Shown: positions 12,001 through 24,000 of the stretch, in pieces
Numbering within the stretch: position 1 is the first letter of the stretch
How the letters are laid out: each line of letters starts with the position of its first letter
Assembly: GCA_943787795.1 (NCBI GenBank)
Contig: CALSNU010000006.1
Span: 256,001 to 320,000, forward strand
From: an uncultured bacterium
GTDB taxonomy: Bacteria; Planctomycetota; UBA1135; GCA-002686595
DNA length: 64,000 bases
Direction of reading: 5' to 3'
Position numbers: made by a program

Positions 12001-15000
12001 GCCTGTCCCGCGAAGGCGCGGGAGGGACGCCGGGTTCACGCCGCCGAGCGCCCACACCGGCAGCGGGCAGGCCGCGCAGAACTCCCGGAGCCCTTCCGGT
12101 CCGAGGATCCCAACCTCCACGTCCTTGGAGTGCGGCGCGAAGACCGGGGCGTGCATGGCGTAGTCCGCGCCCTCCCATCGATCTGGCCCGTCCCCCTGAT
12201 GGGTGGAGACTCCAAGGGTCACCTTGTCGCCGAGAACGCGGCGAGCCTCCGCCGCTGAGAGTGAGCCCCCCGCGAGGTGCACACCGTCTGCCGCCGTGGC
12301 GCCCGCGAGGTGAACGCGGTCGTGGATCCCCAGCCAGGCCCCCGGGGCCTCACGGTCCAGCAGCGCCCGCGCCTCAAGCGCCAACTCAAGGAACGGGCCG
12401 TCCTCAAGGAAAGGCTCGCGGAGCACCAAGCCGGACCCGCCGGCGCGGACGACCTCTCGGAGCCTGACCGGGAACGACGCGAGCTCATCCCCAGCGGCGC
12501 TCCCTGGCGCGCCCCGGGTGAGGGTGCCAGGCGAGAGGACCAGCATGCTCGGGGGCAACCTCCGATGCATCACTCCTCCAGCTCGATCAGGTACCCGAGG
12601 TCCCGGAACAGCGTCCGGTAACGGGCCAAGCTGGTCTTGCTCTTCAGCTGCACCGCGTTGCCATCGAGCTTGCCCTTGATGAACGGGCGCACCCCGGCGT
12701 CTCGCGCGAAGCGGCCCAGGATCCCCGAGTCTTGCGCCCTGATCACATGGTCCGCGCCGAGGAGCAGCAGCCCGGACTTCGACGCCCAATCACGGATCGA
12801 CTGGAGGACGTTTCGGGGCACCGGGGTACGCGCGTTGAAGGTCAGGATCTCCTTCATCTTGGTGAGCGTCATGCCCTCCACGAGCCCTCGATGGACGCTC
12901 TTCTCGTTGATCCTGAACTGCTTCAGCGCGCCGTCCTTCGTGCGCTCGGTGAACCGGTCCAGGTCGTGGGTCAAGACCGCGTCGTCCCCGTCAGAGAACA
13001 GGACGATCTCGAAGTCAGGCGTCACCACGAGGCGGCCGATCCCGAAGGTCTCCTCCTCGGGGGTGTCCACGCCGAGCACCCGCGCCCCGCTGCGGGTGAG
13101 CCGCATCGCCACCGGGTGCCCCTTGTCGTCGTAGCCGAGGTCAACGAGCCCCAGGAGGTACAGGCGCTTGCGAACCCACCCAACGAGGTTCCAGGCGAGC
13201 CGCTGGAGATCCTCCGTGGCCCCGGCGCCTGCAGCGCCCCTGGCGGCGATCATCTCATCCACCTCGAGCACAGCGAGCTGAGAGAGGTACGCGTTGCGAG
13301 CCAGGAACGGGAGGTACATCACGTCGTACCAGACCCCCACCTCCAGGCGCTTCATCAGCGTCGAGAGGATGCGGCGCATGGCCGGGTGGTGGATCGACTC
13401 ATGAGCCTCATCGAGCTCGAACGTGATGTACTCGAAGAGCCCGGCCAGCTTGGTGTCGAGGTCCTGGGACTCCCAGTCCCGGCCGGCGGCCGTGAGCTTG
13501 AAGGTCCGCTCGCCCGTCACCTCAATCAGCCCCACAGAGCGCGAGAACCTGAAGATGAACTGCAGCACCTCGCCGCGCTCCAGCTCTCGCCCCGGGTTCG
13601 GGATGAGCTCGGTGAGGATCCGCTTCTCGGTCGTCTTGAAGATCTCTCCCTTGACCGTGAAGCGCACCGCGTGATCGATGATGTAGGCGAGGAAGCGCGA
13701 GATGTTCGCCATCAGGTCCACGCCGAGCGCCGCCTCGTCGTGGGGCGCGTCCGGGTCGGAGGGCACGGCCACGCGCTTGAACCATGCCAGCGTGACCTCG
13801 TTGAACACGATCAACGTGTCATCCTCGTGCTGGATCCCATAGCGCTCCAGCTCCAACCTTGCGGTGGTGCCGACCAAGGACTCCTCCAGAATCTTCGCCC
13901 AGCGGCGCTGGTTCCAGTGGGGCAGGTCCGTCTCCATGCGCTCGAAGAAGCGCCTGGGGAGCATGCCGCCAAACTCGAGGACTGTCTTCCCGACGAGGTC
14001 CCGGAGCCCCTCCGGCAGACGCTCCACCCGGGCGACCGAGGCCGGCTCCTTGGCGTACATCTTGAACATCTCACGGAGCCGCGAGGGCGACATGGGACGC
14101 TCCACCTCGGGCCCCGCATACCGCTCGTCAAGGTGCCCCTTGAGCGTGATGGTGACCGCGTTGGCCCTGGCCTTCTCCGCGATCTCCTGGAGCAGGAGCG
14201 CGTCTGCAAGCTCTCCGGGGAGGGCGAAGTACTCCCCTTCTGGGTTCCCCTCGCGGAAGACCATCGCGGCGCGCTCGAGATCGCCGAGGACCTCCGCCTC
14301 CGAGGCCCCGCCGAGGATGGAGAGCACGGTCTTGCGCTCCATCCGGTGCCGTGGCGCCAAGAGCAAGGCCTCCACCACGGCCTGGTGGGTCTCTCCCATG
14401 GCCAGCTTGCGCTCGACGGCGCGCTCGGGCTCGCACATCCAGCCCTCGAGGGTGGTCCGCAGCTCCCCGACTCTTGCCGGCGATTCGCTGAACTCGCCGC
14501 CGGACCAGAACTCGAAGGGCTCCCGCAACTGGGCCTTCTTCAGCCGCTTGAGCGCCGCGCTGACGGAGAGATCTCCGCGCACGGAGCGGCGGGGGACCGT
14601 CCCACTGGAGGTCCTGTTCTGGCTGCGCACAGAACGCTTGGTCACACCAGAGGAGTCGGGTTCAGGGGATCGCGCCGTCACTCTACGTCGCCCTCGGGAA
14701 GGCTGGCTGGAGTCTGGGTGCCGGACTCCGCGGCGCCAGGAGCCGCATCGTCCGGATCCACGCCCTCAGCGTGGATGATTTCGTACGAGTACCCCTGCTC
14801 CGTCAGGAACAGCTGCCGCTTCTCGGAGAAGTCCTGATCCCGGGAGCCCAGGGTCACCACCGAGTAGAAGGTGGCGCCGCTCCCGTCCGATTTGGGTCGG
14901 AGGACTCGACCGAGGCGCTGAGCCTCTTCCTGCCGGGATCCAAAGGTCCCGGAGACCTGGATCGCCACCGAGGCGTCCGGGAGATCCACGGCGAAGTTGC

Positions 15001-21000: not shown

Positions 21001-24000
21001 CCCCTGGAGCCCCGCGCCAAGCTGCGCGGCGAGGCGGATTCGTTGCGCCTCCCCTCCGGAGAGCGTGTCCGCACCCCGGTCGAGCGTCAGGTACCCAAGC
21101 CCCACATCCACGAGGAACCGCACCCGCCGCTCGATCTCGAGCAGTAGGTCACGGGCGATGCGCCCCTGGCGCTGAGTCGTCTCCGCCGAGCCCAGGCGCT
21201 CCACGAGCTCTGAGACCGGTCCTGACGTCAGATCCGCGAAGCGCAGCCCGCCGAAGCGGACGTGCCGGGCGAAGAGGTTGATCCGTGAGCCGTCGCACTC
21301 CGTGCAGACCTGCTCGGACAGGAAGCGCTCCACCATCTTTCGGCGCGAGCCCTTCGCCAGGGCGCGCCGGAGGTTCCCCAGGACGCCGTGGAACACTCGG
21401 TTCCAGCTGCCCTTGCCACGCGAACGCTGACCGTTCCACTTGAACGCGTCCCGATAGCGCTTCTCCCCCGTGCCCTCGAGCACCGCCCTTCGCGCTCCTC
21501 GAGACATCTCGGCCCAGGGCGTGTCCAGGTCGAAGCCCGCCGACTCACCCACCCGCTCCAGGAACTCGAAGTCCACGTTTGGGAAGAGCAGCCCGTTCCC
21601 TGCGGCCTTGGTGACCGCGAGGGCTCCCTCTCGCAGGGTGAGTGCCGGGTCGCGGATCACCGCCGCCTCGGACGGCGCCTTCAGCACGCCGAGCCCACCG
21701 CACGCGCCGCATGCCCCGTGCGGTGAGTTGAAGGAGAACAGTCGGGGCTCAAGCTCAGGGAGCTCACGACCGGTCTCCGGGCAGACCCGCTGGGTGGACC
21801 AGGTGCGCTCTCCCTCCTCACCGATCGCAACCACCTCGCCGCCACCCAGGTCCAGCGCTTGCTCAACGGCGTCCCGCAGGCGACCGGGCTCGCCTGCGTC
21901 GGGCTTGAGCCGGTCCACAATGACCTCGACCGTGTGACGCTTGTAGCGCTCGAGCTCCGGCGCGTCCTCCAGTCGAACGATCTCTCCGTCCACCCGCGCG
22001 CGCACGAAGCCGCGGCGCTGGAGGTCCTGGAAGAGCGCGCGGAACGAACCTTTGCGGTCCTTGATCAGGGGCGCCGCCACGACGAGCTTGCGCCCTGCGT
22101 GGGCGGCGAGCAGCTCCTGGACCACCGCCTCTGGTGTCCGGGACTCCACCGGCAGATCGCACCAGGGGCTGTGCGCGACTCCGGCCCGTGCGTAGAGGAC
22201 TCGGAGGTGATCCACGACCTCCGTCAGCGTCCCGACGGTGGAGCGATTGCCACGGGCGATGCTCTTCTGATCCACGGCGATGGCCGGGGAGAGCCCCTCG
22301 ATCGAGTCCACGTCCGGCTTCTGCAAGCCGCCGAGGAACTGGCGGGCATAGGCGGAGAGCGTCTCGAGGAAGCGCCGCTGCCCCTCGCGGAAGAGCGTGT
22401 CGAAGGCGAGGGAGGACTTGCCGGAACCGGACACGCCGGTCACGGCGACGAGGGCCCCCCGAGGCAGCGTCACGTCCACCGAGCGCAGGTTGTTCTGCCT
22501 CGCGCCCCGGATCACGATCTCGCCCGCGTCGGACCCGGAAGTCGTGGGAGCTGCGGGTCGAGAAGGCATCGGGTCGTGGGCGTGCTGGGTGGAAGCGCGA
22601 GGCAGCGCGCAGGTCGTAAGGGCGCGCCCCGCCGACTTGTCGACGAGGGAGGGGCCCCGGAGACTTGCCTCGGGCGTACTGAAGCCGATCAGGATACCAG
22701 CCGGCGTCGTGGGCACCAGCCGCCCGAGGCCGGCGAAATGCCGCAGCAGCCCCCTCAGCCGACCCTGCAGCCGACCCTGCCCGACTCAGCCCCACCCCGC
22801 AGGGAACAAAATGGACGGGTCCCGGCCCCTTCTTGGGAACCCGGACCCGTCCACCGGGTCAAATCGGCCCCTGGTGGGTCCGATGGGCCTCTCCTTCGCT
22901 CAGAGGGAGGAGGCGTGCTCCTGGAGGTAAGACTTGACGCCTTCGGGGGTCGCCTGCATGCCGGCCTTACCGGGCTGCCAGTTGGCGGGGCAGACCTCGC
23001 CGTTCTCCTCGTGGAACTGAAGCGCGTCCACCATGCGGACGAGCTCGTCCATGCTGCGGCCGAGGGGCAGGTTGTTGTGGGTGGCGCTCTGGACGACCCC
23101 GTCCTTGTCGATCAGGAAGGTCGCGCGGTAGCTGAAGCCAGAGGCCTCGTGCACGACGTCGTAGGCATCGGAGACCTTCTTGGCGTCGTCCGCGATGAGG
23201 GCGTACTGGAGCGCACCGATACCGCCGTCGTCGATGGCGGTCTCGCGCCACTTCGCGTGGGTCTCGGCGTCGTCCATGCTGACGCCGAGGATGACCGTGT
23301 TCTTGTCCGCGAGCTCGGCGCACTTGTGATCAAGGGCGATGAGCTCCGAGGGGCAGACGAAGGTGAAGTCCTTCGGATAGAAGACCAGCGCGACGTACTT
23401 GCCGGCGTAGTCGGAGAGGCTGATCTCCTTGGTGGTGCCGTCGGGCATGACGGCGGGCGCGGTGAACGCAGGAGCTTTCTGGTTGATGAGCGAAGCCATG
23501 ACTTGTGTCTGGGTTGGAGCGAAGGGCCTCCTCCGGACAGGGCGCCGAAGGGTCCCCGCGGAAGGACGAGGCGAAGTATTCTGCGGCAGGAGGACCCCGG
23601 CTCAAGGCTCAGGGACCGGGAATGTCCCCGGCGAGAGCCGCTGGTTATCGCTGTCATGGGCGCGAGGCCCGGTCCTCAGCCCTCCAGGCGGGACCCCATC
23701 GGCTCCCACAGCCCCGGCGCGCAGGCGAGGATCTCCCCTCCCCGAAGCCAGCGCTCACCGCCGCTGAAGTCCCGCACCACGCCCCCGGCCTCCCGGACCA
23801 GCAGCGCGCCCGCGGCCACGTCAAAGGGCGAGAGGTGCAGCTCCCAGAACCCATCCAGCCGTCCCGCCGCGACGTACGCCAGGTCAAGCGCGGCCGAGCC
23901 CAGCCGCCGCAGCCCACGGACGTCGTAGAAGAAGCGGCCGAAGTTCTCGAGATTCGAATTGGCGAGCTCGCCGCGGCGGTACGGGAACCCCGTGGCCAGG

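Follow-up and report, generated by a model that had tools for sequence, protein, structure and literature searches.

Human TFIIH, a factor that serves both repair and transcription, contains p52, the subunit that holds the XPB helicase and switches it on. The XPB–p52–p8 assembly (Ssl2–Tfb2–Tfb5; PDB 6NMI, 8EBS, 6TRS, 6TRU) combines an XPB that carries an N-terminal extension with a protein made up of NTD, MD1 and clutch (MD2) domains, the clutch being homologous to the XPB extension. The archaeal XPB–Bax1 pair, as described in parts of PMC7293015 and PMC13024598, consists of a prokaryotic XPB and a dedicated, helicase-modulating partner encoded by the adjoining gene; as a nuclease, Bax1 is related to XPG, and its binding sites are the thumb and HD2 regions. 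The XPBs of Mycobacterium tuberculosis and Kineococcus radiotolerans have a short N-terminal domain and the helicase core, without the eukaryotic C-terminal extension (PMC3353954, in part). Papers on bacterial XPB, in the sections available, state that a p52-type partner is missing from bacteria, and our literature searches turned up no account of a p52-like partner in bacteria. A fused uvrA is the usual state in Planctomycetes, according to excerpts of PMC8567305.

The locus analysed here lies in a window of 64,000 nucleotides from an uncultured planctomycete (contig CALSNU010000006.1, positions 256,001 to 320,000); coordinates below count from the first nucleotide of this window. Three co-directional ORFs on the minus strand follow each other 5' to 3' as uvrA, XPB and partner, chained via two GTGA overlaps, and this ORF reading bears out the three-gene operon proposed in the genome-wide survey's note.

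16549..22569, minus strand: double-length (tandem-fused) class-I uvrA (NF001503, TIGR00630, Walker A motifs)
about 19750-22518, minus strand: uvrA half 1
about 16768-19644, minus strand: uvrA half 2
14678..16552, minus strand: XPB/ERCC3-type SF2 helicase, 624 aa, GTG start (NF045503)
15944..16498, minus strand: XPB N-terminal module, residues 19-203, NTE (Helicase_C_3) plus DRD-like domain (Pfam, hhalign)
12570..14681, minus strand: p52/Tfb2-like partner, 703 aa, 'helicase-associated domain-containing protein', GTG start (fold and profile matches)
14582, minus strand: alternative partner start, V34

The uvrA stop and the XPB GTG start have GTGA in common at 16549-16552, as do the XPB stop and the partner GTG start at 14678-14681. 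The 4-nt overlap noted earlier stands, and the 95-nt gap between XPB and partner results from the choice of the later start V34 (14582); the GTG start at 14681 overlaps the XPB stop. The 703-aa form is present in public gene calls. The longest uvrA ORF is 16549..22716 (2055 aa), and the earlier start at 22569 (M50) is reasonable, since the UvrA family models begin near residue 65.

UvrA is duplicated in tandem, as the survey had it, and both class-I copies are complete. The protein scores 2159.5 bits against NF001503 in two stretches, UvrA_inter and UvrA_DNA-bind each match in two stretches, the halves reach 1157.5 and 951.6 bits with TIGR00630, and there are four GSGKS/T Walker A motifs; a Lys/Arg-rich C-terminal tail ends just before the stop (16549-16551). 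It is like the double-length UvrA of Planctomycetes, a fusion of two complete uvrA genes (PMC8567305, in part). Against the chlamydial long UvrA model NF001885 it scores 1235.7 bits, under the cut-off of 3054. XPB has 0 occurrences in the accessible text of PMC8567305, to which the window adds the linkage to XPB and its partner.

The second gene encodes an XPB, again in line with the survey: 792.6 bits with NF045503 (cut-off 610), with Helicase_C_3 (residues 49-168 in Pfam), ResIII and ERCC3_RAD25_C all present. GAGKT, DEVH and RED are invariant among 38 aligned XPBs, and judged by these motifs the enzyme looks catalytically intact. The short archaeal XPBs, to our knowledge, lack the Helicase_C_3 extension. 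The M. tuberculosis and K. radiotolerans XPBs belong to the same equivalog family as the window XPB (PMC3353954, in part), alongside which a partner gene is encoded. The N-terminal module of XPB (19-203) is the part that is duplicated in this partner, whose domains we assign as follows.

14157..14576, minus strand: partner 36-175, N-terminal domain (helical, winged-helix), matched to the p52 NTD (structural alignment)
13767..14156, minus strand: partner 176-305, putative extra helix/strand domain (from secondary structure)
13068..13766, minus strand: partner 306-538, p52 MD1-like double winged-helix unit (structural alignment; domain names from PMC7708078)
12771..13046, minus strand: partner 546-637, 'clutch', equivalent to p52 MD2 and XPB NTE (Helicase_C_3; Pfam, structure, hhalign)
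12573..12770, minus strand: partner 638-703, small alpha/beta domain homologous to the DRD-like, post-NTE domain of XPB (hhalign, through XPB 203)

Helicase_C_3, at residues 551-665 of the 703-aa ORF (518-632 counted from V34), is the sole Pfam match to the partner at E ≤ 1, as claimed before; Tfb2 and Tfb2_C are undetected in it at the same threshold. For the window partner, the sequence link to p52 needs profiles. The likeness between the partner C-terminus and the XPB N-terminus had been reported from BLASTP of sub-sequences (33% identity, 61 residues, E 8e-9); the whole proteins give 33% identity over 54 residues at E 1e-6, and hhalign is far stronger, aligning partner 548-701 with XPB 19-203 (probability 98.9%, E 3.4e-17, 153 columns). 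This profile comparison extends the homology over the last 155 residues of the partner and the entire N-terminal module of XPB. The ESM Atlas result could be reproduced (Helicase_C_3 in 27 of 30 clusters; one cluster, score 0.94, with Tfb2 in 10% of members), and the weak winged-helix Pfam matches (Mrr_N, Trans_reg_C, EutK_C) could not: at E ≤ 0.01, the 62 family members yielded Tfb2 (4), MCM_C (2) and YsdD (1). Sub-threshold Pfam Tfb2 matches occur in 4 of these 62 (best 1.8e-5), in 4 of 48 cross-phylum members (best 3.6e-6) and in 2 of 9 divergent planctomycete partners. All 48 cross-phylum partners have Helicase_C_3. A profile of the 62 members finds the XPB NTD at 5.9e-5 and p52 at 0.0018. 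With the 48-sequence cross-phylum profile, Tfb2/p52 proteins match at E 9.4e-13 to 9.2e-10, the best value being that of Tfb2, versus 2e-6 for eukaryotic XPB; human p52 comes at 6.3e-10 and Chaetomium thermophilum p52 at 1.5e-12, the latter in one stretch covering profile positions 222-485 (MD1 and MD2).

The predicted fold points the same way. The AF2 model of the whole partner, built with 62 homologues, has a pLDDT of 89.8 and a pTM of 0.82, and in a Foldseek search of the PDB ranks 1-17 are all p52/Tfb2 chains. The best match, 8ebs_D (E 1.4e-10), has 549 alignment columns on a chain of 446 residues and so takes in nearly all of p52; XPB N-terminal regions follow at ~1e-5, and the multi-winged-helix protein RPC62 has a probability of at most 0.63. 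With VIA-align, the whole partner matches p52 MD1 plus clutch at Z 12-15. Partner 306-537 aligns with MD1 (6tru_C 129-318) at Z 10.9, rmsd 3.7 Å over 157 residues, the clutch with 7o4i_7 at Z 13.9, rmsd 1.4 Å over 88 residues, and partner 91-638 with p52 44-400 in 9pcp_D. Partner 546-701 also aligns with human XPB 71-293 (Z 15-16, ~152 residues, rmsd ~9 Å). Sequence identity to p52 in the structural alignments is about 12-17%. Full-length p52 matches have low TM-scores of 0.2-0.3 with an rmsd of about 22 Å because the domains are arranged differently, and we therefore argue homology per domain.

The survey's note had cautioned that the p52 likeness was confined to the shared XPB-NTD-like domain. 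This caveat falls with a model from which the clutch is left out (partner 36-545, pLDDT 92.1): p52 still ranks first in Foldseek (E 9e-4), and again when 48,161 chains are searched independently of Foldseek. The top match there is 6trs_B (Z 11.2, rmsd 3.5 Å, 156 aligned); 6tru_B follows with Z 10.3 over 239 aligned residues, which pairs protein 86-538 (model 51-503) with ctp52 32-319, and 6gym_2 has Z 8.8. The next fold among the 48,161 chains is that of generic winged helices, at Z no higher than 8.0, so the p52 values of 8.8-11.2 for the winged-helix half lie only about 1 to 3 units above it. With both fold and cross-phylum profile in agreement, the reading of the partner as a p52/Tfb2 counterpart is more strongly supported than before.

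Like TFIIH, whose p52 chains match the partner best in both structure and profile searches, the window pair has an XPB with an N-terminal extension, an NTD–MD1–clutch protein, and a clutch homologous to that extension. The partner is larger (703 aa versus 462 aa, 240 longer than human p52), with its extra domain at ~176-305; in the structural searches this domain has no aligned p52 counterpart and is covered by less than a fifth of the matches listed. The last domain also differs: residues 638-703 occupy the position of the p8-binding CTD of p52, but are homologous to the XPB DRD-like domain, with no Tfb2_C detected. No p8 gene was recognised, the context of p34, p44, p62 and XPD is absent, and the pair is encoded in an operon behind uvrA. 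Unlike Bax1, the partner lacks a nuclease domain; its matches are to p52 and not to Bax1.

In planctomycetes, XPB and partner are rarely apart. The partner gene lies directly 3' of XPB on the same strand at 58 of 60 planctomycete loci examined, and 24 of the 60 have a start codon in 4-nt overlap with the XPB stop. Among the matches listed for a sample of 201 Planctomycetota genomes, a partner-type match is found in 77 of the 81 that have XPB above the cut-off, and the 7 genomes that match the profile yet lack a full XPB are explained by fragments of XPB, partners at contig ends or a marginal match. In the cross-phylum set, the partner profile finds a match within 4.4 kb on the same strand at 47 of 80 XPB loci. 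An adjacent partner is absent at 20 of the 70 cross-phylum XPB loci that could be assessed and at 2 of the 60 planctomycete loci. Among longer proteins we found no XPB–partner fusion, a weak negative. From the near-obligate adjacency of the genes we infer that the proteins bind each other. Complex prediction for full-length XPB and partner 540-703 weakly suggests the same: the score is 0.59 (best of three controls 0.00) and passes a mark that was reached for 116 out of 157 complexes of solved structure and for 2 out of 215 mismatched pairs, though scores of at most 0.60 include only 18 of the 157 and both passing mismatches. Contact agreement between runs was at least 62% and partner pLDDT at least 81. 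As XPB–p52 complexes have already been solved, the pass may reflect likeness to known structures.

Could the partner instead be unrelated to p52, an XPB N-terminal module duplicated in bacteria and fused to a generic winged-helix array, mainly DNA-binding or regulatory perhaps, with the p52 likeness due to convergence? Its strongest single similarity is indeed to the N-terminus of XPB itself, Pfam sees Helicase_C_3 alone, generic MarR/ArsR-type wHTH repressors match its N-terminal domain at Z 7-8, and its last domain is XPB-like, not Tfb2_C-like. However, the cross-phylum profile ranks p52/Tfb2 (about 1e-12) well ahead of XPB from eukaryotes (2e-6), its alignment with C. thermophilum p52 extends through MD1, and the sub-threshold Tfb2 matches start about 45 residues ahead of the clutch. 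MD1, which its crystallographers describe as having no structural homologue (PMC7708078, in part), comes first when the model without the clutch is searched, and the domain order NTD, MD1, clutch is common to both proteins. We regard convergence as improbable. That XPB and partner form a mobile defence or DNA-surveillance cassette placed beside uvrA by chance is more improbable by far. XPB weakly matches the PADLOC PbeA helicase models (E 5.9e-23, in the helicase core) and 3 of the 48 cross-phylum partners have WYL domains, yet the window partner has no PADLOC match, the flanking genes are housekeeping ones (peroxiredoxin, IMPase, thiE, thiL, tsaE), and GC is even across the region (0.66-0.73). 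The XPB tree also largely tracks family codes inside the clade, which with XPB identities of 49-69% fits vertical inheritance.

Of the pathway claimed in the survey's note, the coupling of uvrA, XPB and partner is tight and conserved, but only inside one planctomycete clade, and a role of the pair in excision repair downstream of UvrA is not shown. Such a pathway would have the single-chain UvrA dimer find lesions and recruit, or hand DNA to, an XPB–p52-like motor that opens the DNA, assisting or partly replacing UvrB loading or UvrD. Several observations are in keeping with it. The window's uvrA overlaps XPB by GTGA and is the sole class-I uvrA of the genome; of 33 loci with uvrA directly upstream, 23 offer a start codon in 4-nt overlap with the uvrA stop; and the order uvrA–XPB–partner occurs at 23 of 60 planctomycete loci examined and at 10 of the 21 cross-phylum loci labelled Planctomycetota. 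In 37 paired genomes, linked and unlinked, the identity of the partner to the window protein goes down to 20%, that of XPB being 49-69%. Eukaryotic XPB–p52 works in excision repair (PMC6422496, PMC7708078, in part). Four marine RNA libraries of one study have contigs 95-100% identical to parts of all three genes, and one RNA-library contig (14587-15026) spans the XPB/partner junction, though contigs in RNA libraries fall short of showing transcription. Against this, uvrA is beside XPB at none of 59 loci from other phyla, relatives without the uvrA link retain XPB and partner, and 33 of the 34 linked loci group within a single 55-row clade of the XPB tree, on which the link label requires only 3 changes. 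This pattern fits a single gain with losses better than recruitment that was repeated independently. uvrB and uvrC are intact, together on another contig, so there is no sign of UvrB replacement; the two halves of UvrA also retain their UvrB-interaction domains. Because the uvrA link is confined to one clade and uvrB and uvrC lie elsewhere, we put the UvrA-to-XPB pathway forward as a hypothesis, not a finding, and as it is formulated here we think it possible but rather unlikely.

Our preferred reading, which we hold to be probable, sees in the 703-aa protein a bacterial relative, by structure and by sequence, of TFIIH p52/Tfb2 and the dedicated partner of the XPB encoded upstream; the fold evidence consists of predicted models throughout. 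Its clutch would pair, β-sheet to β-sheet, with the N-terminal extension of XPB, its homologue, in the manner of p52 MD2 in TFIIH, and the DRD-like domain that follows could complete a pseudo-symmetric cradle round the helicase lobes. The cradle would keep the lobes ATPase-competent, so that the partner may stimulate the ATPase and tune DNA translocation and opening, and the N-terminal winged-helix domains (NTD-like, extra and MD1-like) would be free for DNA or another factor. In the planctomycete clade, translational chaining ties the pair to the double-length housekeeping uvrA, so that XPB and partner would be made together with the damage sensor. Chaining of this kind is co-expression that hints at DNA repair, short of proof for a hand-over from UvrA to XPB. 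The data are compatible with an XPB–p52 module that reaches back to bacteria.

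The genome-wide survey's note had described three adjacent genes for a UvrA, an XPB helicase and a p52/Tfb2-like protein (here called the partner), and our analysis confirms both the open reading frames and their order. They lie in a run of minus-strand genes, in a region of about 70% G+C:

16549..22716, minus strand: uvrA, longest open reading frame, likely start ATG at 22569
14678..16552, minus strand: XPB, 624 residues
12570..14681, minus strand: partner, 703 residues
upstream neighbours: peroxiredoxin, inositol monophosphatase and S13 peptidase, housekeeping
downstream neighbours: thiE, thiL and tsaE, housekeeping

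As matches to the UvrA models set in only near residue 65, translation of uvrA probably starts from the ATG at 22569. One GTGA is common to the uvrA stop and the XPB start, and a second GTGA is common to the XPB stop and the GTG start of the partner gene. The 95-nt gap previously placed between XPB and the partner stands if the later start V34 is chosen, and that choice is its origin. It disappears with the 703-residue form, which overlaps XPB by 4 nt instead; this form is present in public gene calls, and close relatives have the same overlap. Residues 1–35 are predicted by the structure model to be disordered. On the other side of the partner, the longest open reading frame of thiE (11818..12789), with a TMP-TENI domain from residue 105, abuts or overlaps the partner stop at 12570, and the partner–thiE order is the same in a close relative (locus L101). 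Terminator-like sites were found at neither junction and at two positions elsewhere, compared to 3.8 expected by chance, and a sigma-70 promoter scan of 11500–23600 gave 0 sites compared to 0.2 expected; both scans are uninformative for this organism. In four marine RNA libraries from a single study, contigs match parts of all three genes with 95–100% identity, which, as they are contigs, cannot prove transcription. One of them (14587–15026) spans the XPB/partner junction and another (12379–12716) the partner/thiE junction, each being a contig and thus no proof of a transcript. Many bins are without contigs and none of the listed pieces bridges the uvrA/XPB junction, which says nothing about transcription there.

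In the uvrA product two complete class-I UvrAs are fused, with TIGR00630 scores of 1157.5 and 951.6 bits for the halves (cut-off 729.8). Each half contains both the UvrA_inter (UvrB-interaction) and the UvrA_DNA-bind insertions, each of these models matching the whole protein in two stretches, and all four Walker A sites are readable. A fused uvrA is described in PMC8567305 as the normal state among Planctomycetes. This is the single class-I uvrA in the assembly (4.7 Mb, 85% complete); uvrB and uvrC lie together on another contig, C3, and not near the uvrA of the window. The last ~60 residues of UvrA (window ~16552–16740) form a low-complexity tail rich in Lys, Arg, Gly, Ala and Gln, which extends past the ends of the UvrA models and reaches right to the overlapping XPB start. 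A second tandem UvrA-like gene is found outside the window, on contig C2 of the same genome (C2:93350-98062, loci L005–L008), with an open frame of 1654 residues. In both of its halves TIGR00630 positions ~115–262, where UvrB binds, are missing and the score stays under the family cut-off; the gene appears to encode a double-length UvrA paralogue of class-II-like type. XPB scores as a full equivalog of NF045503 (792.6 bits compared to a cut-off of 610), and its motifs GAGKT, DEVH and RED (R-E-D) are invariant across 38 aligned XPBs.

The only Pfam match of the partner at E ≤ 1 is Helicase_C_3 (residues 551–665, 47.8 bits, cut-off 34.2), and those of its relatives that are named go under [quoted passage not shown] or "hypothetical protein". 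The weak point of the proposed likeness to p52 was its confinement to this shared XPB-NTD-like domain, which we call the clutch. The likeness past the clutch is now supported by a model of the whole protein, a model without the clutch, and sequence profiles. In a Foldseek search of the PDB with the whole-partner model (62 homologues, pLDDT 89.8, pTM 0.82), ranks 1–17 are all p52/Tfb2 chains, the best being 8ebs_D with an E-value of 1.4e-10 and 549 alignment columns on a chain of 446 residues. These are followed by XPB N-terminal regions at ~1e-5 and then by the multi-winged-helix RPC62 at low probability. In VIA-align superpositions of the predicted structure, partner residues 91–638 align with p52 44–400 (312 aligned), residues 306–638 with p52 129–400 (Z 12–15), and residues 306–537 with MD1 of C. 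thermophilum p52 (Z 10.9, rmsd 3.7 Å, 157 aligned). The modelled clutch superimposes on yeast Ssl2 126–218 with an rmsd of 1.4 Å over 88 residues.

The model without the XPB-like domain (residues 36–545, pLDDT 92.1) also finds p52 first in Foldseek (8ebs_D 9e-4, 6tru_A 2.8e-3). A search of 48,161 representative chains, independent of Foldseek, places p52/Tfb2 entries at ranks 1–3: 6trs_B (Z 11.2, rmsd 3.5 Å, 156 aligned), 6tru_B (Z 10.3, 239 aligned, 32–319) and 6gym_2 (Z 8.8), with generic MarR/ArsR winged helices behind them at Z ≤ 8.0. On these predicted models, the N-terminal half of the partner would fold as the NTD and MD1 of p52. The crystallographers of p52 describe NTD, MD1 and MD2 as being without significant structural homologues (PMC7708078), and the MD1 match is therefore more telling than a generic winged-helix match.

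The sequence profiles point in the same direction. A planctomycete-only profile reaches the XPB NTD at 5.9e-5; its match to p52 spans 28 residues and has an E-value of 0.0018. A 48-member profile of partners from many phyla matches yeast Tfb2 at 9.4e-13 and human p52 at 6.3e-10, with eukaryotic XPB behind at 2e-6; its clutch stretch alone has an i-E of 1.5e-9 against Tfb2. C. thermophilum p52 is matched at 1.5e-12 in one stretch (profile 222–485), of which the MD1 part has low confidence. No sequence exceeds the gathering score of 34.5 bits for Pfam Tfb2 (PF03849), and the partner itself has no match to it even at E ≤ 1. Sub-threshold Tfb2 matches occur in 4 of 62 relatives (best E 1.8e-5), 4 of 48 (best 3.6e-6) and 2 of 9, with at most ~24 bits (23.9 and 23.4 bits in the relatives L052 and L086). 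The weak Mrr_N, Trans_reg_C and EutK_C matches reported by the survey do not recur in the 62-member set at E ≤ 0.01. Predicted structure and profiles together support the partner as a p52 relative with the domain order NTD, (extra domain), MD1, clutch, outside formal Pfam membership.

The partner also differs from p52, in that residues ~176–305 have no counterpart in the p52 alignments, and in its last domain. Profile–profile comparison with hhalign shows that residues 548–701 are homologous to XPB 19–203 (98.9%, E 3.4e-17, 153 columns), with residues 638–701 aligning with XPB 136–203. The copy of XPB thus covers the N-terminal extension (NTE) plus the next, DRD-like domain. In structural alignment the predicted module (546–701) matches human XPB 71–293 with Z 15–16 over ~152 aligned residues, the rmsd of ~9 Å being due to a hinge. 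The p52 alignments end at residue 638, and the p8/Tfb5-binding domain Tfb2_C (PF18307) has no match in the partner at E ≤ 1. This implies that the copy of the second XPB domain stands where p52 has its p8-binding CTD. Tfb5/p8 matches of the cross-phylum profile are non-significant (E 0.19–0.34) and fall exactly on this post-clutch domain (638–703; 12573–12770). They hint at a possible common origin of p8, the CTD of p52 and the DRD of XPB, which we take only as a lead. In partners of the planctomycete family f56 (L063, L069, L074, L076, L079 and L087; 562–609 residues) and in that of L057 (702 residues), each protein has two matches to the profile's clutch region, for example at residues 245–370 and 456–556 of L076, which suggests an internal duplication of the XPB-NTD-like domain.

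XPB scores over its cut-off in 81 of 201 sampled Planctomycetota genomes. The partner profile matches 88 of the 201, including all 81 with XPB, because it also matches the N-terminus of XPB itself. A separate partner-type match is present in at least 77 of the 81, among the matches listed; the seven further profile-positive genomes hold, among the matches listed, XPB fragments, partners at contig ends or a marginal match. At 58 of 60 fetched planctomycete loci a partner lies directly downstream of XPB on the same strand. Of these partners, 41 align with the whole profile and another 11 are divergent variants, while tblastn or the genome profile search revealed the remaining six. At the two exceptions, XPB is followed by a TPR protein or a dihydroorotate dehydrogenase. 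At 24 of the 60 loci there is a 4-nt overlap between a start codon and the XPB stop. Over the same 37 genomes XPB is much better conserved than the partner, with identities of 49–69% compared to 20–52%.

The pairing extends beyond this phylum. We collected 80 XPB loci from named records, including Spirochaetota, Chloroflexota, Cyanobacteriota, Bacillota, Gemmatimonadota, Acidobacteriota and Thorarchaeota, and mapped the partner matches to nucleotide coordinates (in L101 the stop-to-stop frame of the partner spans XPB). A partner-profile match lies within 4.4 kb on the same strand at 47 of the 80 loci and on the opposite strand at three; 20 have no match, and at 10 the flanking DNA is too short to judge. 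At 16 no-match loci, including 13 of these 20, the open reading frames flanking XPB are unrelated genes by Pfam or have no Pfam match. No longer fused partner forms (1232–3515 residues) were found, which is weak evidence. An XPB frame that runs on for 1394 codons in L084, and a second long-frame locus, were attributed to open frames arising by chance in GC-rich DNA rather than to XPB–partner fusions, because the partner is in a different frame, and were not counted. The gene beside the mycobacterial XPB may belong to the partner family; a literature search with the locus tags of that gene returned nothing relevant.

Complex prediction for full XPB with partner residues 540–703 gave 0.59, compared to 0.00 for the best of three controls, with a contact agreement between runs of at least 62% and a partner pLDDT of at least 81. 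Of the 157 solved complexes, 116 reach the mark for such predictions, as do 2 of the 215 mismatched pairs, and values of at most 0.60 are seen in only 18 solved complexes and both passing mismatches. As XPB–p52 complexes have already been solved, the pass may only reflect likeness to them, and the predicted complex backs binding weakly. The genomic association strongly implies that the partner pairs with XPB.

Some genomes vary this arrangement. Genome G002 has two XPB–partner pairs (L048 and L049, contigs C77 and C215). In one, located behind uvrA, the partner is full-length; in the other, which lacks uvrA, a divergent partner ends in a WYL domain, a domain present in 3 of the 48 cross-phylum partners. 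On a Candidatus Hydrogenedentes chromosome (L105, 9646–12858) XPB is followed by a 1071-residue AddB-like protein with a PD-(D/E)XK nuclease and by no p52-like gene, which is a different helicase–nuclease neighbourhood. Three archaeal loci, from a Candidatus Thorarchaeota (L127, 7989–13129) and from records labelled "uncultured archaeon" (L124 and L129), encode long-form XPBs that are 53–55% identical to that of the window and form one clade inside the bacterial radiation. Each also encodes a Helicase_C_3 protein of 571–584 residues on the XPB strand, starting 1.7–3.5 kb downstream of XPB in L127 and L124 and 2.6 kb downstream in L129. In L127 and L124 an RFC-small-subunit-like gene lies between the two on the opposite strand, and the scanned neighbours are of archaeal type (RIO kinase, KaiC, MFS).

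The linkage to uvrA is narrower. At the 60 planctomycete loci uvrA is directly upstream of XPB in 23; L053 is ambiguous, two have uvrA 2.9–3.8 kb away, three could not be assessed, and at the remaining 31 no uvrA lies within ~7 kb. In the cross-phylum set uvrA adjoins XPB at 10 of 21 Planctomycetota-labelled loci, compared to none of the 59 others. A 4-nt overlap of a start codon with the uvrA stop is seen at 23 of 33 adjacent loci. On a FastTree XPB tree of 131 rows, from which 10 short or interrupted sequences were left out, 33 of 34 uvrA-linked loci fall in one 55-row clade (support 95), and the label requires at least three changes, compared to a mean of 29 after shuffling. This distribution implies that the linkage is old and tightly coupled and has survived deep divergence. 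In essence it goes back to a single evolutionary event followed by losses, and for that reason carries little independent weight. XPB and partner persist without the uvrA linkage, with uvrB and uvrC unchanged. A UvrA–XPB–partner pathway confined to one clade is a reasonable hypothesis. That XPB and the partner would instead serve as a defence system is most improbable: the partner has no PADLOC match, XPB matches only the PbeA helicase-core models there, and the genes around the three are housekeeping genes.

In the full-text literature, the coverage of which leaves out subscription-only papers, we found no account of a p52/Tfb2-like partner for XPB in bacteria. According to a passage of PMC3353954, bacteria yielded no homologues of p44 and p52, and a 2026 review speaks of the function of XPB in archaea and bacteria as "more elusive" (PMC13024598). 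The pseudo-symmetric dimer of XPB NTD and p52 clutch, and the p52 domains, are described in PMC6422496 and PMC7708078. A joint reading of our results, which we consider speculative and rather unlikely as a whole, would be that XPB and a p52-like subunit form a pre-eukaryotic "mini-TFIIH", an ancient DNA-opening motor of two proteins that occurs widely among bacteria and in Thorarchaeota as well. A copy of the NTE-plus-DRD module of XPB would then have given rise to the C-terminal half of p52, and the p8-binding CTD would therefore be a later replacement or derivative. One planctomycete clade would have wired the motor into excision repair, in stoichiometry with a single-chain UvrA dimer, and the motor would act on lesions found by UvrA. 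If true, this would be a hybrid of the bacterial and eukaryotic logics of NER.

The probable existence of an XPB–p52 pairing outside eukaryotes bears on the origin of TFIIH. In its C-terminal module the partner clearly carries a copy of the N-terminal one of XPB, and this suggests a way in which the pseudo-symmetric clutch came about. As the p52-like partner is conserved and encoded in the same putative operon, assays of bacterial XPB should use the heterodimer, and the mechanism by which p52 activates XPB in TFIIH becomes testable in a genetically tractable two-protein system. In addition, the linkage to uvrA offers a concrete pathway hypothesis for bacterial XPB.
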